From sequence record PQ488502.1: a DNA stretch of 64,000 nucleotides; one strand, 5' to 3'. Position numbers and translations under genes: made by a program. A model generated the notes under the pieces. It saw only the letters and a list, made by a program, of their open reading frames with translations. It ran no database searches and had not been told where the DNA came from. Shown piece by piece: positions 30,044 to 56,457 of the stretch. Numbering within the stretch: the stretch's first letter is position 1; every line of letters starts with the position of its first letter. The DNA is from Escherichia phage BUCT632.

Positions 30044-30716
30044 GTTTCAGGGCAGCCTTAACAGCTTCGTTAATCAACGTAATAATTTCTTCACGAGTCC
30101 ATTTATATCCTAGAGATTTTACGTCAACCCCTAACTTTTCCAGATGTTTAACAGAGGCCAACTCGTAATTCATATAATGAACGTTCTGTTGTTTGCCTTC
30201 TGATAGAAGCCATACACGGTAACAACCAACAGGATTATCCATTGCTTTTTTGATTTCACCGATACACTGGTATCCAGGAACCCAAACAAGCTCACCAACT
30301 GCAAATTCTTCTGCTACAGCATCATCAGGAATAATTGGAGGATTCAATGGATCTACAATATCGTTCAAACGAAGTAGAGCACCATATCGTTCCAGAACAG
30401 ATTTAACCATTGCTACAGAGCGATAATTACGATCGGCAATTTCTTCAAAAGAATCACCAGATAAATACTGCTCAATAACGTTGGCTAACTCAATGCCTTC
30501 AATGAGAGTGCCACGTTTCTTTTTCTTCATTTCGGCAACCTGAATCTGGCGGTCTTGCCATTCTTCAATCATCCTTTCCATAGTTGGATTGGACGATACG
30601 CCGAGCATTTCACATGCTGCTTTCTTAGTACCACCGTTCTCCAGATGCTCTATAACCTTTTTAAAGACTTCATCCGGGATTTCATGGATATGTTTCTTTC
30701 TACGAGAACCAGCCAT
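30012..30716 (-). CDS. Hypothetical protein with helix-turn-helix-like N-terminal region
   Basis: 234 aa; GGTKKAACEMLGVSSNPTMERMIEEW resembles an HTH; RBS GAGGGAGGAG and a TTGCAT-N17-TATAAT promoter at 30747-30775 (minus). Confidence 0.5.
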   Translation of the reverse strand: MAGSRRKKHIHEIPDEVFKKVIEHLENGGTKKAACEMLGVSSNPTMERMIEEWQDRQIQVAEMKKKKRGTLIEGIELANVIEQYLSGDSFEEIADRNYRSVAMVKSVLERYGALLRLNDIVDPLNPPIIPDDAVAEEFAVGELVWVPGYQCIGEIKKAMDNPVGCYRVWLLSEGKQQNVHYMNYELASVKHLEKLGVDVKSLGYKWTREEIITLINEAVKAALKLDKEKGKRRE

Positions 30717-30784
30717 ATTTAAACTCCTCCCTCAAATTTATGAATCTATTATACAGAAATTTTTTGCACTATGCAAATAAATTT

Positions 30785-31027
30785 TTACGATTCCTTGAGC
30801 AAAGAAGCTAGTTCAGCATAGACTTTATCTAACTCAAAGCCGATGCGAAGAGACACGTTTGTTTTCCGTTGTTTAAGTAACCACTCGGATATGTTAGGGA
30901 TGCCAGCTAATCTGTGCGGTACCACCCTACATAGCTTTTCCGAAGTGTCGTAAACAGGAACTTTACGTTCTTTTACTGGGAACTTCCTTGTTTCCCATTT
31001 TTTATTCTTCACTGTCATTTCTAGCAC
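30785..31027 (-). CDS. Hypothetical protein
   Basis: 80-aa basic ORF. Confidence 0.45.
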   Translation of the reverse strand: MLEMTVKNKKWETRKFPVKERKVPVYDTSEKLCRVVPHRLAGIPNISEWLLKQRKTNVSLRIGFELDKVYAELASLLKES

Positions 31028-33791
31028 CTAGCTCTGCCATTGCTTCATCATGCATATGTTTCTCCTCATCAGTCATAAACTTATACGGGATTGGCATACA
31101 CTCGATTTTACAATAAGTTCTGTACCAGTCTACAATATTCTCCGTGTTCATATCCTTGCCAATACCCATCATACCAAGATACATTCTGGCATATTTTGGG
31201 TTAGCACTCTGACCTGTTTTAAGGAAGAAATCTTTCTTCTTACCTTTCAGAGCTTCTATAAATGGTTTGATAGTGACATTTGAACACTTCTTAATATCTT
31301 CCCAGAACATCTCGTGCATCTTATGGAAGAATGCCGCTCGATCATTAGGTTTATCCTTGATATACTGTTCAACATGCTCAACTGTTACATCTTTAATAGA
31401 CTCAAGATGATAATAGCGAACAAGAAGTAGTTTAGCTTCATACGCATCTGCATGGCGTGGAGCACAATAATCAGGAGTTGAATACAAAATAGCTTTGATT
31501 CGCTCTTCCGTATATTCTTTTCCTGCACCTTCGATAGTTCCCCAGCTTTCACTGAAAATATCAATAGTTGCACCCTGATCAAGCAAGTAGTAACGTAAAG
31601 TACTAGTATAGTTCCTAGATTCCAGCTCTCTACGACGTGCGTATAATTGCTGTGCTAACTCTAGCCAACCTTCATCAATGTTATATTGTTCAGAACCTGC
31701 GGAGAATCCACTCGTAGATTTATCAATAAAATAATAAATGTTCTGAGCGCCACGGTCGCGCCTGATTGCTTGAAAACGCATGTTTGGCGCTTGGTTTGAG
31801 GTTCTAGTAATAACGAATACGTTATCAAAATAGTTGAAGTCAACACCACTCGTTACGGATGGACTACATAATAAGCAATCAATTTGTTGGTCAATTAGCT
31901 CATTAGTTGTGTAATCCAGAATACGTCTAATATCTACATCAGACGTAGAGTTTGAGTGGATTTCCTTAACTAACGCACCCGTATTACGACGCAATGCCAT
32001 GCCCTTCTCATTCAGTTCATCCGGTCCACAGTCAGATACTAGGATAGATTTCTCACCCATCTCTAGAGAAGTCTGAAGTGCAACCCAAATACTGGATTCA
32101 TCCGGGAACTCATAAGCATGAGCTTTTGACAGCATCTTACGGTGATGATTATAAAATGCTACTGGTTTATCAAACTCAATCAAAGAACCATACGCTTCAA
32201 TTGTTTCTGCACTAATATCCCCATCAGATAATATAATAATTTTTGCAGTTGCAAGAATGTCCCGAAGAACCTGTATACATTCACGACGTTGTTTAACAAC
32301 CGGGGCGAATAATAGGTCATTCATTACAGCATCACATTCATCGATAAAGATTACATCAATTTGACCAATAAAACTCTTGAACTTATGCAAAGAGTGAATA
32401 GTTGTGGACATACGGTCAATAGCACCACGCTTAAAATTAAGCATATCTACGGACTTATCATATTGTCCTGCACTAAATTTCTTAGCATTTGAAGATACCA
32501 GTGCTCGAGTATTGGTAATTGCTAAGAAATTACCTTTAATAACTCCTGAATCTAACCAACGCACAACCGCCGTAGTTTTACCTGTACCTAGACTTGCTTT
32601 TACAAAAGTCATATAACCTTCTGGTGGTACAGTATTTAATTTCAAGAAGTTATCAGTTTCTAGAGAATTAGTTTCTAGCTTTTTAAGTGGAATACCTTTT
32701 AAAACATCAGGTATATCACGTTTAGAATTATTAACAAATGCTTTCAGAGCCTGTTTACGACCGTTATTAAAGTAATCTTGAATATTACGACTATTATCTT
32801 TAGTTGCAATATATTCTGATAAGGCTGGGCGGATTTCTTTTTCTAGCCATGCAAAATCAACACCATCCTCCAAAGCTCTGTGATAGAGTTTAGGTATAAT
32901 ACGTAGATACACTCCATCCTCAGCTTCTTCTAGTTCGCTGATAGTTTCCTCTACTTTATCAGAGGCAGCTTTTTTACCCTTAATTTGATCGAGTAAAGAG
33001 TAAAACTCCTCCTTAAACTCACCTCTAGTTGTTTCATAGTCAACCAGATTATTGGGTAAATTTACTTTAGAACCCTTAACAAATACCAGACGTGAAGCAC
33101 CCTCCGCCTTAAACGGATCTACTATACCATCGGTAAATAACGGATCTGCAAAATAGTGGAGCTGTACAGAAGAGTAATAAGCTAAGTCGGCAATATCAAA
33201 GCCATACTTTTGTCTACTACTTTCGTTGATAGATGTAAATAAGAATTTGATTTGACCCTGAGTTACTTTAACATTAGACTCTAGTATTAAGTGCATTCGG
33301 ATACCTGGTTTTAGCCCAGCCGAAGACGATGCATGAGCGATAAACCCTGCATCAAGAGGAAACATATCCTCACTAATACTATTTAACATCCTAATAATAT
33401 GTCGAGCCATGCCAACAAGATCAAACTTGTTACAACCACCTGTATCTACAATACCATCCACGTCCATTGCAATTATATGGCTTGGATTAGATACATTAAA
33501 GTTGCCCTTCTTACGCCGCACATTATTTTTAGGTGCAAGACATCGACCTCGTACCGCAACGATATGAGGGTCAGACGTTAAACGTCTCATAAGAGGAAGC
33601 ATTTCTACTAGGGTTTGAGGATCAACTTCATCAATTACATCAAACTTGAAGGGCATTGAAGCTGGTTTACCTTCAGGATGCTTTGAGGAAAATCTTTTAG
33701 CAAAAAGATAGTCTTCTGCTTTAACTTCTCGCCAATTGCCTGTGGCTAAATCGCGATGAAATCCTGCATGACCTTGTAGGATTGAGAACAC
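31002..33791 (-). CDS. P-loop NTPase / helicase-like replication protein (origin-binding or primase-helicase-like)
   Basis: Walker A ASLGTGKTTAV and Walker B-like FIDECDAV; start tentatively GTG at 33791 after AGGAG (ORF track extends to 33869). Confidence 0.6.
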   Translation of the reverse strand: MFSILQGHAGFHRDLATGNWREVKAEDYLFAKRFSSKHPEGKPASMPFKFDVIDEVDPQTLVEMLPLMRRLTSDPHIVAVRGRCLAPKNNVRRKKGNFNVSNPSHIIAMDVDGIVDTGGCNKFDLVGMARHIIRMLNSISEDMFPLDAGFIAHASSSAGLKPGIRMHLILESNVKVTQGQIKFLFTSINESSRQKYGFDIADLAYYSSVQLHYFADPLFTDGIVDPFKAEGASRLVFVKGSKVNLPNNLVDYETTRGEFKEEFYSLLDQIKGKKAASDKVEETISELEEAEDGVYLRIIPKLYHRALEDGVDFAWLEKEIRPALSEYIATKDNSRNIQDYFNNGRKQALKAFVNNSKRDIPDVLKGIPLKKLETNSLETDNFLKLNTVPPEGYMTFVKASLGTGKTTAVVRWLDSGVIKGNFLAITNTRALVSSNAKKFSAGQYDKSVDMLNFKRGAIDRMSTTIHSLHKFKSFIGQIDVIFIDECDAVMNDLLFAPVVKQRRECIQVLRDILATAKIIILSDGDISAETIEAYGSLIEFDKPVAFYNHHRKMLSKAHAYEFPDESSIWVALQTSLEMGEKSILVSDCGPDELNEKGMALRRNTGALVKEIHSNSTSDVDIRRILDYTTNELIDQQIDCLLCSPSVTSGVDFNYFDNVFVITRTSNQAPNMRFQAIRRDRGAQNIYYFIDKSTSGFSAGSEQYNIDEGWLELAQQLYARRRELESRNYTSTLRYYLLDQGATIDIFSESWGTIEGAGKEYTEERIKAILYSTPDYCAPRHADAYEAKLLLVRYYHLESIKDVTVEHVEQYIKDKPNDRAAFFHKMHEMFWEDIKKCSNVTIKPFIEALKGKKKDFFLKTGQSANPKYARMYLGMMGIGKDMNTENIVDWYRTYCKIECMPIPYKFMTDEEKHMHDEAMAELGARNDSEE

Positions 33792-34282
33792 AACAATACT
33801 CCTGTGTTGGAAATGAAATAAGTTTTCTTTAGGACTATTCAGAAAGAATAGAACAACTGTTACTGTCAATTTCTCAACAAATTAATTGCAAATACTGAAG
33901 TGGGGTGGCAACTTCCACTTTCACGCTGCGCTGCTGCCTCATTATACCGCACAAATCCTTGAGGATGGCCGCTAAGCCAGATTTGCTCACCTAATGCTTC
34001 ATATACTAGCTCATACTAGATGCAATATAACTTACAGAATCACGTCTCGGTAGTTTTTCACTCCTCCCATCTCACTTCACAACCACCTCATACTAGGTTG
34101 CTTCGAGGCCTTACCAGGGTTCCTATGGGACGCAGATCGCTAAGTATTCTATTAACTATTTGTTTAAAAACTAACACGTAACAGTTAAAACAACCCTTAA
34201 TGGGGCAGCCTAACTGTTCCGTATCGCGGATTGTAAACAAGAAAAATTAGCAAAATCAATTTTTACTAATGTCTCTCAATTC

Positions 34283-34320
34283 AATATAAATATTATATCA
34301 AGATTTTGGGCATCATGCAA
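34283..34320 (-). promoter_or_regulatory. Early promoter (TTGCAT-N17-TATAAT, minus strand) upstream of a 500-nt ORF-free leader
   Basis: Reverse complement TTGCATGATGCCCAAAATCTTGATATAAT. Confidence 0.55.
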
Positions 34321-34396
34321 GTAAATTTTTCCCAAAGGTGCTATCAGTGTCTTTGAGCATAGAGAAAACCGAGCCAAAATGACTCGGTTATATGGA

Positions 34397-34591
34397 TTAA
34401 TCATAAAAAAGACCACGAATAGTATTAGCAAATTTAAGTATAATAGCGCGGTTTGAGCTACTTAACTTTTTAATATCGAAAGTGGGATCGGTCAAATATC
34501 TTGCCATAAATTTTACTTGCTTAGCTGAAAGTTGGCCCTTATTCCACTTTTTAATCTTACCATAACATACCCAATATTCTTTATTCATCAT
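34397..34591 (-). CDS. Hypothetical protein
   Basis: 64-aa ORF. Confidence 0.4.
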   Translation of the reverse strand: MMNKEYWVCYGKIKKWNKGQLSAKQVKFMARYLTDPTFDIKKLSSSNRAIILKFANTIRGLFYD

Positions 34592-34973
34592 TTAATCCCG
34601 GAACATATATCCCAACACTATTTAATTGTTCTCTAGCTTCTTTGAGAATATCTGGAGTGTACTCCCAAATATCATCTTCCACCTGTAAAAGATGGGGCGA
34701 ACAACCATCATCCGGCACACGACATATGGCCAGACCACGTGGATGGAACAAAGAGAAATTTAGGGCAACAATCAAGCCCATAGCAGACAACTCATTCCAA
34801 TCCAATTCCCATTCCCCGGCGTATCCAGACAGGAAAACGCCAATGCACGGATCATCTGTTTGCTGCTCAGGAAAAGTGAAGGAGGCTTGTCTTACCCCCA
34901 ACCAACGTTGTAGCAGCTTTTCCGCACGCTTCACCAAACTAGGATCAATCTGACGCCAATATACTTGTTCCAT
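34581..34973 (-). CDS. Hypothetical protein (paralogue of the adjacent 142-aa ORF)
   Basis: Shares ...PCIG...W(K/N)ELDEMGL(V/I)(F/V)ALN... and a C-terminal ...G(Y/I)(Q/Y)(I/V)PGL motif with 34983..35411. Confidence 0.55.
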   Translation of the reverse strand: MEQVYWRQIDPSLVKRAEKLLQRWLGVRQASFTFPEQQTDDPCIGVFLSGYAGEWELDWNELSAMGLIVALNFSLFHPRGLAICRVPDDGCSPHLLQVEDDIWEYTPDILKEAREQLNSVGIYVPGLNDE

Positions 34974-34982
34974 TGTGCCCCC

Positions 34983-35411
34983 TTAGGCAGTTAAACCCGG
35001 AATTTGATAACCAAAACGGCGAAGTTTTTGGATACCATCATTTACTTCTTCCGGTGAGTAAGACCAACCATAACGTTCATTAACCTGGAAACCAGGAGAT
35101 TCACTAGTTTTATAGTTAACAACGAGGCGATGCTTAGCAGGCATAAACAGCTTATAGTTTAACGCAAAAACTAAGCCCATTTCATCTAACTCTTTCCAGC
35201 CTACAATCTCTTCAAGACCCTCCTCTACCTGAACAATTAAACCAATACAGGGAGCCTCATCAATATCATCTTTAAAAGCAAAGGAGATTTCATTATTCTC
35301 ACACCATATTTTCAAGGAGTTAATAGCCTCATTATACAGGCTAGCGGGGAGAGTACGCCAAAAGTTAACTAAAATTGGGTTAGCTTCTTTAGAGAATACA
35401 TTATTGAACAT
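34983..35411 (-). CDS. Hypothetical protein (paralogue of the adjacent 130-aa ORF)
   Basis: Tandem paralogue pair; see 34581..34973. Confidence 0.55.
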   Translation of the reverse strand: MFNNVFSKEANPILVNFWRTLPASLYNEAINSLKIWCENNEISFAFKDDIDEAPCIGLIVQVEEGLEEIVGWKELDEMGLVFALNYKLFMPAKHRLVVNYKTSESPGFQVNERYGWSYSPEEVNDGIQKLRRFGYQIPGLTA

Positions 35412-35413
35412 AT

Positions 35414-35926
35414 TTACACCTTAAATTGTTGCAAGGATTTACACATTTCAAGATCTGGGCTAAATTCTAGCATATAGCTAACAGCTTTTAAATCTTGAAG
35501 ATTTATCCCAGTCCTACCATTGACTATAACCGTTGGATACTGATACATCATAGCACCGGCATCATCCAGCACACACCAATGTTTAAGCTTATGCTTTTCC
35601 ACGAAGCGAAGAACAGAATTACCCCTAGATAATCCACCACCAGTAAAATCCGTTGTACCAAGAAAACGATCGATAAGACCTAATCCGGTCATAATCTGAA
35701 CGTTCTCCATCTCATTCCGGACAGAGAACCATGAGGATACCCCAACAATCATTATCGAGGAAGGACGAATAAAATCTTGAAAAGCCTTGAGAAGCGGTTT
35801 GAAAACCCAGTCACTCCCAAAGAAAATCTTTTCATCATCAGGTGCATGATGGTGGGAGATGCTCGAATTGAGCACCCCATCAATGTCCAGAAAAATAATT
35901 GGAGTATTACTTATTTCTTGACACAT
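35414..35926 (-). CDS. HAD-superfamily phosphatase-like protein
   Basis: N-terminal IFLDIDGVL (HAD motif I, DxDG). Confidence 0.55.
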   Translation of the reverse strand: MCQEISNTPIIFLDIDGVLNSSISHHHAPDDEKIFFGSDWVFKPLLKAFQDFIRPSSIMIVGVSSWFSVRNEMENVQIMTGLGLIDRFLGTTDFTGGGLSRGNSVLRFVEKHKLKHWCVLDDAGAMMYQYPTVIVNGRTGINLQDLKAVSYMLEFSPDLEMCKSLQQFKV

Positions 35927-36722
35927 AAGGTCTACCCTCTAAATGAGCTTCTACACGAGCAATAAAATCAGGGTCACTGAAAGCATCTACCGCACCCTTA
36001 CTCCAATAAGGAATACCACGTTCTTCCAGCTGGTACATCTCACTACGAGTCATACCTTGATAGCCTGGCTCTGCTGCTAGGGCACTATCATAGTAGTTAA
36101 CAACCATAAGTTTCGCAGCAGTCAAATTAAGAACAGGAAATAATTCCCAGTAGAAGTTAATTACTTGGTTAGAGCAACCAACCACAACGATCATATCTTG
36201 ACTGGTAATATCATCAAAAACATTGTACATTTCTGCGTATGCAGGAGCATGCTCTCCAAAGAAGATTACATTAGGTTTAACCCATTTATAATCATCTGGA
36301 TCAATAGAATTATATCCTACATCAATAATCCGTTTATTGCTACTATTGTAGCTATCAGATACAACAACCTCTTTTAAATATCCGTGAATGTGCAGAATGT
36401 CACTATGTGGAACGCCAGCACGCTCAATAAGGTCATCAACGTTGGTAGTTAAGTTTACTACTTGACCTGGATATTGTTTATACCATTCACCAATACGCAA
36501 ATGTGCAAGATTGGGTTCAACAGTTTTTAGCTCTTCACGACGCTTGTTGTAAAACATATGGGTTTTATGATAAAAATTACCACGAAAGGCATGAATATTA
36601 CATACTTCTTCTAGATCATAATCATCCCACAATGCTTTACCACTAGCAGTATCAGTACGAAAAGCTCGTACACCACTTTCAACACTCAAACCTGCACCGC
36701 TAATAATAATTAATCTACGCAT
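35907..36722 (-). CDS. Sir2 (sirtuin)-family NAD-dependent protein
   Basis: GAGLSVESGVRAFR (GAGIS-type motif), TTNVDDLIERAG (TQNID-type motif), HIHG. Confidence 0.65.
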   Translation of the reverse strand: MRRLIIISGAGLSVESGVRAFRTDTASGKALWDDYDLEEVCNIHAFRGNFYHKTHMFYNKRREELKTVEPNLAHLRIGEWYKQYPGQVVNLTTNVDDLIERAGVPHSDILHIHGYLKEVVVSDSYNSSNKRIIDVGYNSIDPDDYKWVKPNVIFFGEHAPAYAEMYNVFDDITSQDMIVVVGCSNQVINFYWELFPVLNLTAAKLMVVNYYDSALAAEPGYQGMTRSEMYQLEERGIPYWSKGAVDAFSDPDFIARVEAHLEGRPYVSRNK

Positions 36723-36936
36723 TTTTCACCTGTTCTCTGAAGTTTTGCCCAATACTATCTAACAGCTCAGCTAATTCTTTATTACCTTTCTCCATTAAGG
36801 TATTAGCAATAACTTCTAGCATAGTAGCGCAAGATTCAACACCATCCTTATAGCCAGTTTCCCAGTGCTGCATTAATGCGTTTTCCAAAGCGGCGTTTAA
36901 ACCCTTATCTGGTAGCATCGGCTTCGAGAATGCCAT
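36715..36936 (-). CDS. Hypothetical protein
   Basis: 73-aa ORF. Confidence 0.4.
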   Translation of the reverse strand: MAFSKPMLPDKGLNAALENALMQHWETGYKDGVESCATMLEVIANTLMEKGNKELAELLDSIGQNFREQVKNA

Positions 36937-37108
36937 AAAGTTTCTCCTCTAGTTCCATAACACGATTTTCATAAGAGGCACGCAACTTTTCAATTGCCAG
37001 CGCACGCACTGTAACCTCATTAGAATTAATAGCTAATTGGGCCAGGTCTTCTGTTTCCATACGTCCGTTGTAAATTAAGCGATATTTAAGATGTTTTACA
37101 TTTTTCAT
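36905..37108 (-). CDS. Hypothetical protein
   Basis: 67-aa ORF. Confidence 0.4.
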   Translation of the reverse strand: MKNVKHLKYRLIYNGRMETEDLAQLAINSNEVTVRALAIEKLRASYENRVMELEEKLYGILEADATR

Positions 37109-37317
37109 TCTCGTTCCTCAAACATTTCAATTTCTGCATTAGCAATAGAAAGGGCGGGCTCAGATAAGCACAATCCCATCCTAGGATCGATCTTCCCTTC
37201 GCCAATCCAAGTACTTACTAAACATAATTTAGTTATATCCTCACGGAGAATCGAACCATATGCCCCAGAATCCATAATAAAATAGATACGTTCTTTATCT
37301 ACCTTGTGAACTCTCAT
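37105..37317 (-). CDS. Hypothetical protein
   Basis: 70-aa ORF preceded by a minus-strand TTGCTT-N17-TATAAT promoter and RBS. Confidence 0.45.
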   Translation of the reverse strand: MRVHKVDKERIYFIMDSGAYGSILREDITKLCLVSTWIGEGKIDPRMGLCLSEPALSIANAEIEMFEERE

Positions 37318-37380
37318 AGCTTTCTCCTCTCAAATTTATAAATCAATTATACATAAGTTTTAGCTAGAAAGCAAATAAAA

Positions 37381-37410
37381 TAAAAGCCAGGTTGACTAGC
37401 AACCCGGCTG
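37381..37410 (-). terminator. Terminator hairpin downstream of nrdD
   Basis: Reverse complement AGCCGGGTTGCTAGTCAACCTGGCT followed by a T-run. Confidence 0.6.
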
Positions 37411-37416
37411 ATTAGC

Positions 37417-39291
37417 TTATTTAGCTCGAATATCCTGATGTTTCACTCTGCCCATCACCTCGTGCTGTTTGCCGGGGTTAAATGGACGAGCACCCGGATT
37501 TCCAAGATACCCACAAACTCGACGAGTTACTTCAAGAGTTTCGGGGTCATGATTACCACAGATAGGGCACTTAAATCCATCTTCGGATGCTATTGTTTCA
37601 CCTAAGAATCCGCATTTACCGCAAGAATCCACTGGAGTATTAATACCGAAGTAATGAACTTTACTAGCAGCATAATTAATAACCCATTCCAGTGCATCTG
37701 GGAATCGTTTCATATCCGGTAGTTCTACATAGGAAATGCATCCACCAGAAGCAATCGGAGTAAAGTTAGATTCATAATCAAATTTCACATTAGGAGCAAC
37801 TTTACGTTCCACATCAAGGTGGTGAGAGTTAGTGTAGTATCCTTTGGACAGAATATCTTCATGCTCTGGGAAATATTCACGGTCTAGACGACAAAAACGG
37901 TCACATAGGGATTCTGATGGTGTAGCATACAGGCTATAACCTAATTTAGTTTCTTCCTTCTTCTGATCGACTCTATCCCGCATGTACTGCAATACACGCT
38001 GAACAAACTTGATGCAGGTCTCGGACATTGTGTCTACATCTTTGCCAAACATGAACTGTAGCATTTCATGGCAGCCAATATACCCTAGAGATACAGAAGC
38101 ACGGTTATAGAAATGATCGAATACATACTCATCAGGCCCCAAGCGTAACCCAAAGGCTCCTGACATATAGAGGATGGGTGCAGCTTTAGCTTGAATGTAT
38201 TTTAAGCGATCAACTCTCCACTCCAATGCTTTTAACGCTGTATCCACACGTAGCTCAAGCAAATCAAAGAATAGATCAATATTTCCTTCAGCTTCGATAG
38301 CAATTCTAGGCAAGTTTACAGAAACAACACCTAAGTTATTACGACCAGCAGTTTCACCATCTTCTGTAGCAGCTAGGAATGAACGACAGCCCATAGAAAC
38401 TTTGTAGTCTCCAGTAACTTCTACAACTTTGTCATAGCTGATATAATCGGGATACATACGTTCAGCAGTACATTTCATAGCTAACTTCTTGATGTCATAA
38501 TTAACATCTCCTGGCTTCATATTTACGCCATCACGAAGTACAAATACCAGTTTCGGGAAGATAGCTGTACGTTTATTGATACCTAAACCATCCATGCGTA
38601 CTTTCAGTATTGCTTTCTGTACTAGACGTGCTTCCCAAGAAGTTCCTAGACCAAAACCAAAGGTAATAAATGGACTCTGACCGTTAGAGTTGAACATGGT
38701 ATTGATTTCATATTCTAAACCCTGACAAGCGTCATAGACTTCCTTTTCAGTCATCTCCGTAGCCATTACGGATGCTTTGGCTTCATCCTTAGTCCAACGT
38801 TTTGCAAACGCATGATTTTTGTCATATGATTTACGAACATAAGGGGCTAATACTTCATCAAGGCGGTCTACAGAAGTACCACCATACTGATGGGAGCTAA
38901 CCTGAGTGATAATCTGAGCAGTAATAGCCGCCGCAGTAGTGATAGAGTTTGGAGTGCTAATTTCAGCATTACCAACCTTCATACCATTCTTCAACATATC
39001 TTCCAGGGCTACCAGACAACAGTTAGTCATGCCTAATGCAGCATAATCAGCATCATGGAAATGAATATCCCCAATCATATGAGCATTTCGAATCTGAATT
39101 GGCATTTCTTCTAGAATTAGATACTTACTCAATTCACCTGCAAGCATATCCCTTTGTGTAGGGAAACGTTCTGAGGGTTTATTGGCATTATTAAACAGCA
39201 GCTCTTCATCTGCTGACCCTTCGATAATCTCTTTGCAGTTTCTAATTAGCGCCTGCATTTCTTTATACTTTAGTTCTTCATTGCGATTCAT
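37417..39291 (-). CDS. nrdD: Anaerobic ribonucleoside-triphosphate reductase
   Basis: 624 aa; C-terminal glycyl-radical motif TRRVCGYLG and CxxC zinc site (CGKCGF...CPICG). Confidence 0.85.
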   Translation of the reverse strand: MNRNEELKYKEMQALIRNCKEIIEGSADEELLFNNANKPSERFPTQRDMLAGELSKYLILEEMPIQIRNAHMIGDIHFHDADYAALGMTNCCLVALEDMLKNGMKVGNAEISTPNSITTAAAITAQIITQVSSHQYGGTSVDRLDEVLAPYVRKSYDKNHAFAKRWTKDEAKASVMATEMTEKEVYDACQGLEYEINTMFNSNGQSPFITFGFGLGTSWEARLVQKAILKVRMDGLGINKRTAIFPKLVFVLRDGVNMKPGDVNYDIKKLAMKCTAERMYPDYISYDKVVEVTGDYKVSMGCRSFLAATEDGETAGRNNLGVVSVNLPRIAIEAEGNIDLFFDLLELRVDTALKALEWRVDRLKYIQAKAAPILYMSGAFGLRLGPDEYVFDHFYNRASVSLGYIGCHEMLQFMFGKDVDTMSETCIKFVQRVLQYMRDRVDQKKEETKLGYSLYATPSESLCDRFCRLDREYFPEHEDILSKGYYTNSHHLDVERKVAPNVKFDYESNFTPIASGGCISYVELPDMKRFPDALEWVINYAASKVHYFGINTPVDSCGKCGFLGETIASEDGFKCPICGNHDPETLEVTRRVCGYLGNPGARPFNPGKQHEVMGRVKHQDIRAK

Positions 39292-50574: not shown

Positions 50575-50892
50575 ATGACTTTTCATATTTTGATTGATGA
50601 TGTGCGTAATCTTCACGGAATGGACATTATCATTCGAACCCCAGAAGCCGCTGTAGAGTTTCTGAATAAAACTGATACCACAGGCCATTTCGTTTATATG
50701 GATAATGACTTGGCTGTAGATGGTATGGAAGGTTATCAAATTCTTCGTTTACTCTTAGAATTTGGGCAGAGACCAAAGAAAGTGGTACTAGTAACCTCGA
50801 ACCCAGTAGCTAAGCAAAATATGCGTAATGATTTGCTTGACTTAGGGTATAAAGAAAATCCCAATCGTGTTGAATATGATTGGCAGGAGTAA
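50575..50892 (+). CDS. Stand-alone CheY-like receiver (REC) domain-like protein
   Basis: 105 aa; ILIDDV..., FVYMDNDLAVDGMEGY..., VVLVTSNP...AKQ pattern resembles the Asp pocket / phospho-Asp / Thr / Lys layout of receiver domains. Confidence 0.4.
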   Translation: MTFHILIDDVRNLHGMDIIIRTPEAAVEFLNKTDTTGHFVYMDNDLAVDGMEGYQILRLLLEFGQRPKKVVLVTSNPVAKQNMRNDLLDLGYKENPNRVEYDWQE

Positions 50893-50897
50893 AAAGA

Positions 50898-51347
50898 ATG
50901 AAGGCAGCTTTGCTTTTAGTAGCTGCCCTTACCTTCAGCTTTAGTAGTCAGGCATCGCACGATGCAAAAGAAATAGATTGCATTGCTAAAAATATCTATT
51001 TCGAGAGTCGTGGTGAGGGCATAAAGGGAATGACGGCGATTGCACATGTTACTAAAAACCGTGTAAACTCCGGTAAATTCCCAGATTCCTACTGTAAAGT
51101 AGTATATCAGTCTAACCAGTTCTCTTGGGTATCTAAGAGACCAAAAGTTGATAAAACCGATGAGGCTTGGCAAACAGCCAAGAATTTAGCTAGAGTGATA
51201 TACTACGTTGATTTACCACAAGATCCTACACATGGAGCACTATACTTCCATAGTGGTAAAGATAAACCTTATTGGACAAAGAAGTTTAAGAAAACAACTA
51301 AGATTAAGGGACATACGTTTTATAAACCTGTTGTCACTAAAACTTAA
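50898..51347 (+). CDS. SleB-like cell-wall hydrolase with signal peptide
   Basis: Signal peptide MKAALLLVAALTFSFSSQA; hydrolase_2-type motifs NIYFESRGE, GMTAIAHVTKNRV, CKVVYQSNQFSW; start taken at ATG 50898. Confidence 0.6.
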   Translation: MKAALLLVAALTFSFSSQASHDAKEIDCIAKNIYFESRGEGIKGMTAIAHVTKNRVNSGKFPDSYCKVVYQSNQFSWVSKRPKVDKTDEAWQTAKNLARVIYYVDLPQDPTHGALYFHSGKDKPYWTKKFKKTTKIKGHTFYKPVVTKT

Positions 51348-52037: not shown

Positions 52038-52066
52038 TTGCTAAATGCTTATAAATTCTGTATAAT
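52038..52066 (+). promoter_or_regulatory. Promoter (TTGCTA-N17-TATAAT) driving an ORF-free region and the first tRNA
   Basis: -35 at 52038-52043, -10 at 52061-52066. Confidence 0.65.
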
Positions 52067-52074
52067 ATATTCAT

Positions 52075-52863
52075 AAATTAGGGAACAGCGAGCCGATTAC
52101 GCTGAGTGCAGAATCCCAACCGGAGCGCATTGAATAGAGTCGGTGGGTTAGTTGTAAAACTAGTACACAGGGGGCGGCAATCCCGGTTAGTGGCTAGAAC
52201 GTGTAAAATGAGGCGTCTGAAACCTCTCCCCTAAACTCTTCTCTAATTTATAAATAGTGGGGTGTGGAAATCACTTATGTAGTAACACTGCCGTCCTAGT
52301 ATAATTGGTATTATCAAGCCGTAACTGGTGGAAGATGTAGGTTCGAATCCTACGGTCGGTAAGAACTGGATAACTGATGCTTTTAACGTAAAAGCTTCCG
52401 AGGTTAGTTGCGCACTGCCTAAACCACGCGGTAGTTGGTTCCAGACTAACCAACCAGTCTGCTGAATAGTTTTATTACGATTTAACTATGTCCAGGCTAA
52501 AGAAGAACTTTAGAAGGTATTCTAGGATAGTGAAGTTCTTTCTCCATATCGGAGTAGTTTTTCAAGCTATCCACAAAGTGGGAAATGCTGACATGAGAGA
52601 TGTCACTAATGGTGCACAATAGCACAGGTAATTCGCGATAACTCCTGTTGAGTAGCAGCAAAAGGCGGGAAGTCATGACCCCAAGCCTAACCGAGTCCTC
52701 AATATACCGCAGGATATAACCACTAAGTCACCCTGACTTAAACTGGAAAATAATAGACGTTACCGTATTTTGTCTTGAAATACTTAATGAGTGAGACTTA
52801 TGACTCTCCCGGTATCGTCTGTATTTTTAAGAGTTTTTACGAGAGTTCTTAAAAATACTTAAA
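52075..52863 (+). ncRNA. ORF-free transcribed region with tRNA-like T-arm hairpin (candidate structured stable RNA or precursor leader)
   Basis: About 790 nt without an ORF of 60 aa or more, downstream of a strong promoter; canonical T-arm GTAGG-TTCGAAT-CCTAC at 52337-52353 without a foldable cloverleaf. Confidence 0.3.
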
Positions 52864-52938
52864 CGGGGTGTAGTCTAAGGGAGAGGCAGGAGTCTTCTAA
52901 ATTCCTTTATGCAGGTTCGAATCCTGTCACCTCGGCCA
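52864..52938 (+). tRNA. tRNA-Arg (anticodon TCT)
   Basis: Hand fold: acceptor CGGGGTG/CACCTCG, anticodon loop CTTCTAA, T-arm GCAGG-TTCGAAT-CCTGT, encoded CCA. Confidence 0.7.
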
Positions 52939-52972: not shown

Positions 52973-53920
52973 ATGTTTAATACTAAAAATATGAAAGAAC
53001 TGACTTCTGAGCAGAAAGTAATTCGTACTATTAAACGTTGGGGTATTGGTGCTGTAGTTGGTTTAGCAGGCTTGATTCTAGCTTTTAATTCATATACTAT
53101 TGTTTCTGATGGTACGGTTAAAACCCAAACATTCCTGGGTAAAGTAGATCCTAATCCAGTATTGCCTGGTTTCCATCTTGTAAATCCGTTTGCATCTTTC
53201 GATACTTTTAGTACAAAAGATATTGCTGTAAAATTAGATAAACTTCAGGTTCCTAGCCAGGATAAGTTTAAATCCACTGTTGACCTGACTGTTATGTTGC
53301 AGTTTGATGGTTCTAAGGCACCGATTAACCGTATTAACGCAGGTACTCAGGATCAGGCACTAGACAAGTATGTAACTGAAAAATTATTGTCTACTATTCG
53401 TGAGTTTGGTAAGTCTGTACCTAAAGCACAAGATTTGTTTGATGCTAAAATTCAGGCTCAATTACAAACTGCAATTCAACAGGAAGTTGAAGAGTATGCA
53501 CGCCCATATGGTTACACAGTTAAGCAGGTGTTCCTTCAGGATATTACTCTGCCACCAGTAATCATGGAGCAGGTACAGAATACCAAAGTTCGTGAAGAGC
53601 AAGTTAATGCTGCGAAAGCTGAACTGGCTCGTGTTGAACAGGAAGCACAGCAGAAGGTTAAACAAGCAGAAGCAGATCGTGAAGCTCGTAATAACCAAGC
53701 TATTGCTAATGAACGTGACGCAGATGCTAAACTGTATGCAGCTAAGAAAGAAGCTGAAGCTAACGCCGCACTGCAACGTACCATTACTCCTGAGATGATT
53801 CGTTGGAAACAACTGGAAGTTGAAATGATTCGTGCTCAGAAATATCAAGGTGGTGTACCGCAGACTGTGGTTGGCACTGGCTATGATGGCCAAATGATTA
53901 TGGATATGCGTAATAAATAA
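52973..53920 (+). CDS. SPFH/band-7 (prohibitin/HflC-like) membrane protein
   Basis: N-terminal transmembrane segment (WGIGAVVGLAGLILAF), band-7-like core, C-terminal Ala/Glu/Gln-rich coiled coil. Confidence 0.6.
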   Translation: MFNTKNMKELTSEQKVIRTIKRWGIGAVVGLAGLILAFNSYTIVSDGTVKTQTFLGKVDPNPVLPGFHLVNPFASFDTFSTKDIAVKLDKLQVPSQDKFKSTVDLTVMLQFDGSKAPINRINAGTQDQALDKYVTEKLLSTIREFGKSVPKAQDLFDAKIQAQLQTAIQQEVEEYARPYGYTVKQVFLQDITLPPVIMEQVQNTKVREEQVNAAKAELARVEQEAQQKVKQAEADREARNNQAIANERDADAKLYAAKKEAEANAALQRTITPEMIRWKQLEVEMIRAQKYQGGVPQTVVGTGYDGQMIMDMRNK

Positions 53921-53938
53921 TACCCGCATGTAACATCT

Positions 53939-54035
53939 GAAGTAAGCCCTGCGTTCCCTGGAGAGCGCAGGGTTTTTCTGTATTTAAGATAAAAGAAAAG
54001 CCCCTAAGTCTTTCGACTAGGGGCTTTATTGTTTG
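53939..54035. terminator. Two terminator hairpins between convergent genes
   Basis: CCCTGCG...CGCAGGG+TTTTT and CCCCTAG...CTAGGGG+TTTATTGTTT. Confidence 0.6.
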
Positions 54036-54244
54036 GTTCTTTAGAACCATATACTCTTATTACAGCAACCACCCATACGGGAGGCCAATCTTGACTGAAA
54101 ATCTACTCTAGGGGGCAGGATAAGAGTAGGCTTAAAGGCAAACGGATTGAACGCCGGTATTTGCGTAAACATTGCTGGAGAGCAACAACGTGCTACAGGC
54201 ATTGGGCAGCACGAAACAGATTTTCTGCAACACATAATTCCTCC

Positions 54245-54661
54245 TTAGGAGTTATTACCACCATTTTGAGCTTTTGCAACTTGGCTTTGGCAGAAGCTAT
54301 TAAACTTACCCATAAGTGATACAAGCTGTTTCCCATCCTCTGTCTTTGCGAAGTCTTCGAAAAGGGCTAGTACTGCCTGTCCTTCCGCAGAAACCTGCGA
54401 TTGTTGGGTTTGTTGCTGAACTTGCTGCTGCGGCACCTGTTGCTGCATTTGTTGAGGCATTTGCGACTGCCCGCTCATTTGCTGCATCATTTGTATAGGA
54501 CTCACACTTCCAGGGTTTTGCTGGAGTTGTTGCTGCATCTGTTGCGCTTCTGCTAAACGCTGTTGCAATTGTTGTAAGTAGGGGTTATCCAGACCCGGAA
54601 TGGGCTGCTGGGAGCCCATACTTTGATTAAGTCCGTTATTTACAAAACCATATTTACTCAT
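54245..54661 (-). CDS. Gln-rich hypothetical protein
   Basis: 138 aa with long Q/M-rich low-complexity region; RBS GGAGGAG upstream. Confidence 0.5.
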   Translation of the reverse strand: MSKYGFVNNGLNQSMGSQQPIPGLDNPYLQQLQQRLAEAQQMQQQLQQNPGSVSPIQMMQQMSGQSQMPQQMQQQVPQQQVQQQTQQSQVSAEGQAVLALFEDFAKTEDGKQLVSLMGKFNSFCQSQVAKAQNGGNNS

Positions 54662-54682
54662 AATGGGCTCCTCCCCTTAATA

Positions 54683-55672
54683 TTAAGCCGGCAGTTTAGC
54701 CTGCAGACCAGCCAGAGTCTGAGTGATAGCACCAAGACTTAAAGCGATTTGATTAATTACCTGACCGTTAGCACCGCTACCTGCAGCGATTGCTTCACGT
54801 AGGCGACATGCATCTAACTCATCCTGGATACGCGCAGTAGTTACACCAGCGATCGCAGTCTGAAGTTCACAGCAACATTCAGCGATCTGACGTTCCAGAG
54901 AGTTCTGGTTAGCACACATCTGAGCCTGAACAGCGGCAAACTGGTTATTAGTTTGTAAAGTCTGCTGGAAAGCGATCTGTGCAGAATCAAACTTATCTTG
55001 TGCACGAGCTATCTGGTTAGCTGCGAAAGATTGATCAATCTGGCGAGAAAGATCGAACTGACCCTGAATAACGTTGCGAGTTTCCTGGCAGATCTGATTA
55101 GATAGATTAGCACCTGTACCATAGATCGTAGTTAGTACAGACTGAGTATCACGGCTCTGGTTTTGGGATGTCTGGCTAAAACCATTGTTAACTGCGCTTA
55201 AAACAGCTCCAGTACCCTGGTTAGCTTCTGTACGAGTAGTGTTAATAGCTGCTAGAATACTAGCGGTATCTTGGTTCTGAAGTACTGCATCAACTGCGGT
55301 ACCTTCACCAACTACACCACGTCCACCGAATCCACCGAAACCACCGAATCCGCCTGTTAATAGAGCACCGATTAGGATAGCTCCGAATAGTCCCATACCT
55401 TCACCACCGAAAGCACCTGCGTTTGCTGGGTAACCACCCAGTAGGCCAGGGAAGCCACTAGTGAATACGTTTACTGGTTCTTGCATTTTATGTTTTCCAT
55501 ATTTATGACAATGTTCATCATCATCTTCTTCATCATCTTCATCGTGTTCGCGATGTTTCTCTTCGTAGGCTCTGACCTTCTCCCACTTTTTCTTATCTGA
55601 TTCCTCGTGACGGTGCAGTTCTGCTGCAACGCTAGCGACGGTCTCAGGACTCTTAGCTACTTCTTCTGTCAT
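54683..55672 (-). CDS. Hypothetical protein with acidic His/Asp/Glu stretch, Gly-rich GGFGGFGGFGG segment and Gln/Asn-rich helical C-terminus
   Basis: Start taken at ATG 55672 after RBS AGGAGGTG (ORF track extends to 55732). Confidence 0.5.
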   Translation of the reverse strand: MTEEVAKSPETVASVAAELHRHEESDKKKWEKVRAYEEKHREHDEDDEEDDDEHCHKYGKHKMQEPVNVFTSGFPGLLGGYPANAGAFGGEGMGLFGAILIGALLTGGFGGFGGFGGRGVVGEGTAVDAVLQNQDTASILAAINTTRTEANQGTGAVLSAVNNGFSQTSQNQSRDTQSVLTTIYGTGANLSNQICQETRNVIQGQFDLSRQIDQSFAANQIARAQDKFDSAQIAFQQTLQTNNQFAAVQAQMCANQNSLERQIAECCCELQTAIAGVTTARIQDELDACRLREAIAAGSGANGQVINQIALSLGAITQTLAGLQAKLPA

Positions 55673-55879
55673 TTTTTGACACCTCCTAGTATATAGAAAA
55701 TGTGTGTCTCTTTGATCACTCATCCATAACATATACTTTACACTACCCCAGCGAAAATGTCAAGGGGTCTTTAAAAATTGCCCCCGGATTTTTAGTGGGG
55801 TCACAAATTTTGGTCCTCACCACTTATCTGCTACCCTTAAGTGCCCTATGATTTTCCTCTAAAAAGTTAAAAAATTTGA

Positions 55880-55908
55880 TTGCTTGAATGCTAAATTCTC
55901 TGTATAAT
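55880..55908 (+). promoter_or_regulatory. Promoter (TTGCTT-N17-TATAAT)
   Basis: -35 at 55880-55885, -10 at 55903-55908. Confidence 0.65.
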
Positions 55909-55938
55909 ATATCTATAAATTTGAGAGAGGAACCAAAT

Positions 55939-56457
55939 ATGAATGTTGATGAGCTAACACAGCACCTCTTATCTAGAGGATTTGATACAGATAAATATCA
56001 TTGCTGGTTAAGTCCGGAAGGGTGGCTAACAGTCCCGTTGTATGATTTCTCTGGAATGTTGAGGGGCTATCAAACTTATAATCCTTCTGCTCCAAAAGGT
56101 CATGGTAAGTGCCCATTTGAAGCTAAATACTTTACTTATTCTACTACACAGTGTGTATGGGGACTAGAAACTCTCAATGGAGATGAAAAAGTAGTATTGA
56201 TCGCTGAATCTGTATTTAAGGCAGTTGCGTTACATAATGCGGGTTATCCAGCCCTGGCAATGTTGGGTTCTTCTCCAGGAAAAGCGTTATTAAAGCAACT
56301 GAAATTACTACCTTTTAAATTGGTAGCTGTTGGAGACAATGATCCCGATGGTGAAAAATTTGCTAGACAATTAAATGGATTTGTTTCTCCTGTAGATGTA
56401 GATGAGATGTCTACCGAAAACTTGAAAAATTTTCTTGCTATGAAGCTAAATTTCTAA
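55939..56457 (+). CDS. Small Toprim-domain protein
   Basis: About 172 aa; ...VVLIAESVFKAVALHNAGYPALAMLGSS...LVAVGDNDPDGEKFARQL resembles a Toprim fold (conserved E and DxD). Confidence 0.5.
   Translation: MNVDELTQHLLSRGFDTDKYHCWLSPEGWLTVPLYDFSGMLRGYQTYNPSAPKGHGKCPFEAKYFTYSTTQCVWGLETLNGDEKVVLIAESVFKAVALHNAGYPALAMLGSSPGKALLKQLKLLPFKLVAVGDNDPDGEKFARQLNGFVSPVDVDEMSTENLKNFLAMKLNF

Follow-up and report, generated by a model that had tools for sequence, protein, structure and literature searches.

Does a phage membrane protein of the SPFH/band-7 type act together with the low-complexity proteins encoded beside it on the opposite strand? The question is raised by a locus of Escherichia phage BUCT632 (PQ488502.1), within a stretch of 64,000 nucleotides (nt) that we analysed as a whole and call the window. 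At positions 52973-55672 a first-pass annotation had placed an SPFH gene and a convergent minus-strand pair of genes, bracketed by terminators and embedded in a tRNA island. The SPFH call is right, although the gene had been recognised before; what looked like a pair is a mobile cassette of three genes, marked by a distinctive cysteine signature. On balance, we lean towards reading the locus as two independent accessory units lying tail to tail, namely a phage SPFH gene and a self-contained three-gene cassette that would act by the mechanism proposed below.

The elements of the locus are as follows (ORF, open reading frame; RBS, ribosome-binding site; AF2, AlphaFold2):

52038..52066, plus strand: strong early-type sigma70 promoter (TTGCTA-17-TATAAT); scan 10/12, position of T5 "P 16-17"
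52080..52860, plus strand: non-coding stretch corresponding to T5 "RNAX" (719-nt stable RNA); T5 annotation
52864..52938, plus strand: tRNA-Arg(UCU), directly 5' of the SPFH gene; ARAGORN, Rfam 49.3 bits
52973..53920, plus strand: SPFH/band-7 membrane protein, 315 amino acids (aa), T5.080 homolog; Pfam, PHROG_200, PDB, AF2, Foldseek
53944..53975, plus strand: rho-independent terminator of the SPFH transcript; terminator scan, fold -22.8 kcal/mol, z -4.6
53993..54030, no strand assigned: bidirectional terminator hairpin, end of the minus-strand operon; z -4.3 (minus) and -3.4 (plus), T5 annotation, alignment
54041..54235, minus strand: cassette gene 3, 64-aa peptide, T5.079 homolog; ORF, RBS TAAGGAGGAATTATG, T5 annotation
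54245..54661, minus strand: cassette gene 2, 138-aa Gln-rich protein, T5.078 homolog; ORF, PHROG_7894, alignment
54683..55672, minus strand: cassette gene 1, 329-aa "CCC protein", T5.077 homolog; ORF, PHROG_8119, alignments, AF2
55735..55763, minus strand: sigma70-type promoter of the cassette (TTGACA-17-TAAAGT), equal to T5 P12; scan 10/12, T5 annotation, alignment
55888..56457, plus strand: 189-aa Toprim protein, T5.076/Rad homolog, flanking the cassette; ORF, T5 annotation

A three-gene cassette between the SPFH terminator and the Rad gene

The 3.1-kb block corresponds to T5 genes T5.080 and T5.077-T5.079. Many Tequintavirus genomes (JLBYU40, slur09, Lindwurm, 8sent1748) match it at 97-98% identity, and 457 phage records have DNA-level matches to it. 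ARAGORN predicts 20 tRNA genes in the whole window, and the block indeed lies inside that tRNA island. In the curated record of T5 (NC_005859), the same block carries promoter P12, T5.077 (321 aa), T5.078 (138 aa), T5.079 (64 aa), an "efficient bidirectional rho-independent terminator" and a major DNA nick, while the other strand carries T5.080 ("lipoprotein ... single transmembrane domain"), tRNA-Arg, the 719-nt stable RNAX and promoter P16-17.

The cassette spans about 1.9 kb. It has its own promoter P12, an invariant 5' untranslated region (UTR) and three closely spaced genes that each have a strong RBS, and it ends in a bidirectional terminator. Its orientation is opposite to that of its two neighbours, the SPFH gene with its terminator and the Rad anti-retron gene, between which it is inserted. 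The SPFH gene is co-transcribed with RNAX and tRNA-Arg from the strong early promoter at 52038..52066, which drives all three. The genes are bracketed by terminators only in part: two hairpins separate the convergent units, and the minus-strand unit has a promoter, P12, at its other end. The bidirectional hairpin at 53993-54030 has its U-tract on the minus strand.

Start sites are well marked in all three genes. The RBS AGGAGGT precedes the ATG at 55672 of the 329-aa ORF, not the ATG at 55732 of a longer ORF, and the start of the 138-aa gene is preceded by GGGGAGGAG. The apparent gap at the 3' end of the supposed pair is filled by the 64-aa ORF, whose Shine-Dalgarno (SD) sequence AAGGAGG stands 5 nt before the ATG and overlaps the stop of gene 2.

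The cassette promoter, the 5' UTR of about 60 nt and the RBS (about 95 nt from the -35 box to the ATG) do not differ at any position between the window, T5, UTK0010 and Seabear (100% identity), whereas the coding regions of these four genomes diverge by up to about 25%. Next to the -35 box lies an imperfect palindrome, GGGGGCAATTTTTAAAGACCCC (region 55672-55790, minus strand). The palindrome or the invariant leader could be a regulatory site, or else a sign of recent recombinational spread.

Comparison with related genomes revealed sites that lack the cassette. In IME178 (Tequintavirus) the SPFH terminator is joined directly to the RBS of the Toprim gene, and in bobsandoy (Epseptimavirus) the SPFH gene is followed by a NadR-like gene, with no cassette; NG_S8 lacks the cassette and most of the SPFH gene. 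From these collinear empty sites it follows that the window carries, at about 53981-55900, an insertion with its own promoter and terminator. Such an element, precisely present or absent between collinear genomes, is of the moron type. It resembles the phage morons lambda lom and bor and HK97 gp15 in having its own promoter and terminator, in its reverse insertion and polymorphism, and in being non-essential and encoding a membrane protein. It differs from them in being carried by a virulent phage rather than a prophage and in having three genes instead of one, and no sequence or fold relation to characterised moron products was found.

The view that the SPFH and minus-strand genes form one unit did not hold up, as the two have independent distributions, separate promoters and opposite strands. 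SPFH genes occur without cassette proteins in IME178, in bobsandoy and in T4-like myoviruses, in which the CCC search found no homolog. Conversely, no SPFH gene was found near the cassette of the divergent phages L003, L004 and L007 within the 5-6 kb of flanks examined. Since the SPFH gene and the cassette vary independently, their adjacency is positional.

Cassette proteins and the wider CCC family

All features noted earlier in the 329-aa product of gene 1 were confirmed: the acidic/His block, the GGFGGFGGFGG segment and the Q/N-rich C-terminus (Q+N make up 22% of the last 205 residues), which is predicted to be helical. However, the notion that the minus-strand proteins are aggregation-prone rested on low-complexity segments, and no parts are less conserved than these. 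The acidic/His block differs between homologs, growing to HHYHHHHHEHYE in some and disappearing in others. What is kept is the MQEPVNVF motif, a Gly-rich hydrophobic segment (residues ~92-116), C253, the invariant C266-C267-C268 in QIAECCCE, and a conserved C-terminal helix, NGQVINQIA.SLGAITQTLA.LQ. The CCC motif lies in a helical Q/N-rich domain of about 200 aa and is invariant over some 20 divergent clusters. The AF2 model is nearly all helical and of low confidence, with a mean predicted local distance difference test (pLDDT) score of 48.

The hydrophobic segment of gene 1 opens with GLFGAI (residues 92-97; 55381-55398, minus strand), the same six residues with which the influenza HA2 fusion peptide begins. 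When the gene-1 family profile was compared with the PDB, the best matches were HA2 chains (E 0.007-0.09), aligned from the fusion peptide onward. This resemblance is probably compositional.

The 138-aa product of gene 2 is a soluble protein and Gln-rich, as stated before (27.5% Q). A variable-length Q/P linker connects its N-terminal YLQQLQQRL.EAQ helix to a nearly invariant C-terminal part of about 45 residues with one Cys. The label "cAMP-dependent protein kinase catalytic subunit" for this protein was rejected, as it has no kinase domain: Pfam, NCBIfam and the PDB gave no kinase match, and the matches that did occur all had E > 0.03, were far below cutoffs and were driven by Gln.

The product of gene 3 is a 64-aa peptide of the pattern MCC...SCC...RCC...GCC, in which all eight cysteines stand in four CC doublets. 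Homologs of T5.079 are present in 221 phage records, and the gene is left unannotated in most GenBank records. Within T5-like phages 8/8 cysteines are invariant, and among the 303 ORFs considered in the window the 64-aa ORF alone starts with MCC. Neither small protein (138 aa, 64 aa) has a signal peptide, transmembrane segment or lipobox.

Searches of Pfam, NCBIfam, PADLOC and the PDB with the 329-aa and 138-aa proteins returned only sub-threshold compositional matches, and PADLOC defence models gave nothing with E < 0.09 for any of the three proteins searched. The 329-aa, 138-aa and SPFH proteins of the window are full-length members of PHROG families 8119, 7894 and 200 (E 6e-205, 2e-79 and 2e-86). 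These, like PHROGs 9288 and 16490, are clustering families; 8119, 9288 and 16490 (CCC) and 7894 (partner) have no assigned function, and 200 is the SPFH family. The earlier remark that the minus-strand proteins have no obvious analogue and could be membrane-associated effectors is fair for the 329-aa protein, while the third gene and the Cys-motif signature had been missed.

The CCC cassette was found in 222 records. At all 31 loci that carry a long-form homolog of gene 1 (one with the N-terminal extension) together with the partner, an MCC-initiated ORF begins 0-10 nt after the partner stop. The 31 loci include two divergent T5-like contigs, with gene 1 about 40-45% identical, and a contig of 61 kb that resembles "Pseudomonas phage RSP", has head genes of the Mu type and also carries a homolog of gene 2. 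In L003, L004 and L007 an MCC-initiated ORF takes the same position, so that across four lineages, whose flanking proteins are just 35-60% identical, the ORF is 60-69 aa long. The peptides are otherwise very divergent, yet every Cys stands in a CC doublet (2 or 4 doublets), and a (F/V)NPF.F(K/R) motif is common to the T5 and L004 peptides. Both the MCC peptides and the partner occur only with long-form gene 1. A 101-aa neighbour in L005 was considered as a partner homolog and rejected.

An exhaustive profile search with the CCC domain gave 178 clusters at E<1e-3, 22 of them below 1e-10. Most are "short forms" of 220-290 aa that open directly at the Gly-rich hydrophobic segment; they share NFTTLSSINGLGRD, QNALQQLNSFN, CCC and DG..TRALIN and belong to PHROGs 9288 and 16490. 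The only domain fusions among the distant matches were sub-threshold apolipoprotein-like repeats, and a scan of viral contigs returned only T5-like isolates.

In the Edwardsiella phage eiAU and the Aeromonas phage phiWae15, the short-form CCC gene heads a conserved four-gene cluster after the tail genes (eiAU gp08-gp11, L008 4572-6426; phiWae15, L009 4560-6441; PHROGs 9288, 9157, 8329, 7239). The second gene of eiAU encodes a His-rich protein; in T5-like phages the His-rich block is fused to the CCC protein. Members from Gram-positive bacteria were found in a Coprococcus comes prophage (L022 3886-5988) and in a metagenome-assembled genome of Bacilli (L026 3973-5917). There, the genes for a Gln-rich protein and a small Q/M/N-rich protein come before that of a CCC protein with two CCC motifs, the whole cluster being inserted between the genes for minor capsid and scaffold. 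Alignment of the Coprococcus prophage protein with the T5-like CCC family by hhalign supports the relationship (prob 93%, E 4e-7). For the Gram-positive Gln-rich proteins, hhalign gave a prob of only 0.4-10%, and their homology to the T5 partner is unproven despite a shared N-terminal NPY..QQ..Q pattern. A 142-aa neighbour downstream of the Coprococcus CCC gene has a weak, sub-threshold BclA_C match.

The SPFH protein

The 315-aa ORF at 52973-53920 encodes a protein with one N-terminal hydrophobic helix (residues ~24-42), in line with the original call, and its SPFH identity was confirmed by profile and structure. Pfam Band_7 (PF01145) matches residues 52-225 with 64.2 bits against a cutoff of 23.6 (E 2e-17), and PF01145 is present in all SPFH homologs examined. 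Sequence matches in the PDB are QmcA and prohibitins. The AF2 model (pLDDT 78) has a helix at 12-38, strands at 41-111 and 181-192, and helices at 195-270 and 273-290; that is, an alpha/beta SPFH domain (41-192) followed by about 95 residues of C-terminal helix. Foldseek matched it over its full length to the cage-forming SPFH proteins erlin1/2, PHB1/2, HflK/C, stomatin, QmcA and flotillin (prob 1.00; lowest E 5e-15). Thus, the SPFH fold is present, and profile searches assigned none of the proteins of the locus to a known virion protein; neither of the outcomes that were to refute the first-pass reading occurred.

The N-terminal anchor reaches a Kyte-Doolittle 19-mer maximum of 1.79 at residues 25-43. 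The 22 residues before the hydrophobic helix have a net charge of +4, which predicts that the N-terminus is inside and the SPFH domain outside, that is, the orientation of HflK/C. With HflK/C, QmcA, prohibitin, erlin and stomatin, the phage protein has in common the Band_7 domain, the N-terminal anchor and the long C-terminal helices, although its sequence identity to the cage-forming proteins is only 15-20% at full-length Foldseek E values of 5e-15 to 1e-10. Unlike the HflK/HflC pair it is a single gene, and unlike the QmcA-YbbJ type it has no NfeD partner gene. The locus contains no second SPFH paralog (a tRNA-Arg lies upstream and a terminator downstream); no co-directional ORF precedes the terminator at 53944, and no NfeD Pfam match was found in the neighbours examined. 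Further differences are that virulent phages carry the gene, that it has passed between T5-like and T4-like phages, and that it is dispensable.

Members of this family are found in 725 phage records, many of them already annotated as SPFH. Identity to the proteins of T4-like myoviruses of Klebsiella, Enterobacter, Cronobacter, Escherichia (RB43) and Aeromonas is 60-78%. The SPFH domain of T4-like phages was tabulated in 2006 (PMC1524935), and the gene is of a kind recognised in T4-like and T5-like phages since 2005-2006. It is an ordinary gene, and the main value of its analysis lies in correcting the mislabels "lipoprotein", "membrane protease" and "ion transporter". In GenBank records of relatives (e.g. 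H3, H17, H121, H140) the protein is named "lipoprotein", "membrane protease" or "putative ion transporter". Its 315 residues include not a single cysteine, so the bacterial lipoprotein label of T5.080/PHROG_200 cannot be right: a lipobox Cys is impossible, and the label was rejected.

As SPFH proteins scaffold membrane proteases such as FtsH, it had been proposed that the phage copy may modulate host proteolysis or membrane organisation. This is reasonable by analogy. Knock-down of T5.080 had no fitness effect in a CRISPRi-ART screen. As for how the protein might work, its charge distribution would place the N-terminus in the cytoplasm and the SPFH domain in the periplasm, like HflK/C, and the full-length structural match suggests that it may form a cage or ring through its long C-terminal helices, corralling a patch of inner membrane or a client.

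Two side observations concern the flanks of the SPFH gene. The consensus of the major T5 single-strand nick, Pu|GCGC, occurs here as GGAGA|GCGCA (53960-53969, plus strand; nick 53964/53965), at a site covered by the loop and 3' stem of the hairpin that terminates the SPFH transcript, and aligns with the T5 nick 39746/39747. Inside the RNAX equivalent lies a tRNA-like element (52290-52361, plus strand) that scores 35.5 bits with the Rfam tRNA model, above the gathering score of 29. It is absent from the ARAGORN predictions, and "tRNA-OTHER" is annotated there in some T5-like records.

Possible functions of the cassette and its surroundings

Several lines of evidence bear on what the cassette is for. 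It is dispensable in the laboratory. The viable laboratory variant T5Mos lacks positions 30661-38625 (PMC11464382); on T5 coordinates, P12 (37954-38028) is gone, along with the 5'-terminal 562 nt of T5.077. The right-hand breakpoint is within T5.077, which leaves this much-used variant with neither P12 nor an intact CCC gene. In a genome-wide dCas13d CRISPRi-ART screen, T5.077-T5.080 were all scored "Not Fit", function unknown (PMC11879866, supplementary files 8 and 16). The cassette also adjoins a Rad homolog at the edge of an anti-defence island. T5.076 is listed as anti-defence (PMC11879866, supplementary file 8); Rad, a 189-aa protein with a Toprim domain, is a retron anti-defence protein that is reported to degrade the retron non-coding RNA, and the deletable, tRNA-rich region of about 8 kb has been termed an anti-defence island (bioRxiv 10.1101/2023.03.15.532788).

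We propose that gene 1 would be anchored in the inner membrane by its Gly-rich segment and form an elongated helical oligomer. The invariant CCC row may serve as a thiol-based cross-linking site (disulfide or metal-thiolate), and the Gln-rich protein and the MCC/CC-doublet peptide could be cytoplasmic subunits or cofactors of the gene-1 complex. Such a complex at the cell envelope would take no part in replication, assembly or lysis. Because the cassette is dispensable, patchily distributed and located where it is, we suggest that it may be a conditional fitness factor, for instance one that excludes superinfecting phages or counters a membrane-acting host defence. In its boldest form, which we put forward only tentatively, T5.077-T5.079 might be an undescribed mobile three-component membrane system, made up of the CCC membrane protein, a Gln-rich adaptor and an MCC/CC-doublet micro-protein, that uses thiol chemistry (interchain disulfides or a metal-thiolate cluster) at the inner membrane for phage exclusion or for the neutralisation of host defence. 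Its CCC domain would then be the core of a family of about 180 clusters (counted at 50% identity, from phages of Gram-negative and Gram-positive bacteria).

A number of results weigh against this proposal. In T5-like phages the 64-aa ORF has accumulated very few substitutions (omega 0.2-2.3 for dN/dS), so that selection at the protein level is not demonstrable. Heptad or 11-mer periodicity in gene 1 does not exceed that of shuffled sequences, and together with the pLDDT of 48 this makes an oligomeric coiled coil a conjecture. The short-form relatives have a weak N-out/C-in charge pattern, which in T5-like phages would require translocation of a highly charged N-domain of 90 aa; a monotopic hairpin is an equally possible topology for gene 1. 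As for dispensability, CRISPRi-ART is known to score some essential genes falsely as "Not Fit". Having anti-defence genes as neighbours amounts to no more than guilt by association, and in the literature on T5.077-080, phage SPFH function and the anti-defence island we found no functional data for the four proteins.

Other explanations of the locus have to be considered. One would keep the two units together: an SPFH scaffold that organises or regulates the low-complexity membrane proteins, so that the whole modulates FtsH or host proteolysis. The two are adjacent and convergent, with a common terminator region, in about 220 T5-like genomes, and both the SPFH and the CCC proteins are predicted to be in the inner membrane. 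Nevertheless, we find this scarcely probable, given the independent distributions (725 SPFH records that include T4-like phages, and SPFH alone in IME178 and bobsandoy), the cassettes of L003, L004 and L007 without SPFH in their flanks of 5-6 kb, and the separate promoters on opposite strands; such co-occurrence data argue against an obligate partnership. Another explanation leaves the unit a two-gene pair and takes the 64-aa MCC ORF for the 3' UTR of the operon. The ORF is indeed unannotated in most GenBank records, is a singleton in PHROG and has few substitutions for a dN/dS estimate. We see little chance of this, however, as the ORF has a perfect SD overlapping the stop of gene 2, its all-invariant cysteines and its status as the only MCC-initiated ORF of 303 set it apart, and MCC ORFs of similar length with further CC doublets directly follow the partner in four lineages.

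Three further explanations assign the cassette a different task. It might be a lysis or membrane-fusion device, with a CCC protein like a spanin, holin or class-I fusion protein and small proteins as regulators comparable to T4 T/RI/RIII. The CCC protein does combine, as spanins and HA2 do, a hydrophobic stretch rich in Gly with a long helical part and conserved cysteines; the HA2-like GLFGAI start and profile matches fit this, and a VanY-like peptidase is encoded near a short-form relative. Conserved cysteines in helical membrane proteins also recall the intermolecular disulfides of spanins (lambda Rz/Rz1). Yet the HA2 scores are marginal and likely compositional, there is no heptad signal, the partners have no signal peptide or lipobox, and CCC proteins occur in Gram-positive prophages, whose hosts have no outer membrane. 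The cassette is, moreover, missing from half of the T5-like phages and its knock-down is neutral. The endolysin, holin and Rz-like spanins of T5 itself are encoded at T5.040-045 (spanins T5.044/045), about 15 kb from the cassette, and a spanin or holin role was down-weighted because of this separate set. A two-component spanin was rejected on similar grounds (no lipoprotein partner, separate T5 spanins, Gram-positive homologs), and we think the lysis or fusion role as a whole quite unlikely. A metal or redox module, sequestering or delivering Zn, Cu, Ni or Fe at the membrane or buffering thiol stress, would make use of the His-rich stretches (up to HHYHHHHHEHYE in homologs), the separate His-rich protein after the short-form CCC gene of eiAU, the invariant CCC and the 8 Cys, all in doublets, within 64 residues. 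As the small proteins have no export signals, their thiols would be reduced and free for metal. This, too, is unlikely in our view, because the His/acidic block is poorly conserved (absent in several long-form homologs and in all short forms), no known metal-binding family was matched in the Pfam, NCBIfam and PDB searches, and CC doublets are not a canonical bacterial metal site. The proteins might, finally, be minor virion or assembly components, such as a membrane-inserting ejection protein or a Cys-knot trimeric fibre. Relatives adjoin structural genes (eiAU after tail genes, Coprococcus between minor capsid and scaffold, L007 by terminase and portal), and CC/CCC motifs resemble the interchain cystine knots of trimeric fibres. 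We consider a virion role very unlikely: the T5-like cassette lies in an early tRNA region under a sigma70 promoter, it is dispensable and it has no similarity to any virion PHROG or Pfam family. Published T5 virion proteomes are not known to include proteins from outside the late region.

The cassette deserves more interest than it first received. It is compact and horizontally mobile, carries a very unusual cysteine signature that is kept across unrelated phages, and adjoins proven anti-defence genes (Rad, tRNAs) in the best-studied accessory island of T5. If it is an exclusion or counter-defence device, it would provide a new membrane-based mechanism and a function for several unassigned PHROG families; if not, it is one of many dispensable phage ORFan clusters. 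The cysteine signature is the only part of the finding that deserves experimental follow-up.

Upstream of the block, the window encodes a SleB-like cell-wall hydrolase (50880-51347, plus strand) with an apparent signal peptide, a homolog of T5.083 (Pfam Hydrolase_2 in relatives). Beside it lies a gene for a 105-aa protein (50575-50892, plus strand), whose relatives match cREC_REC. Both are apart from the main lysis cassette of T5.

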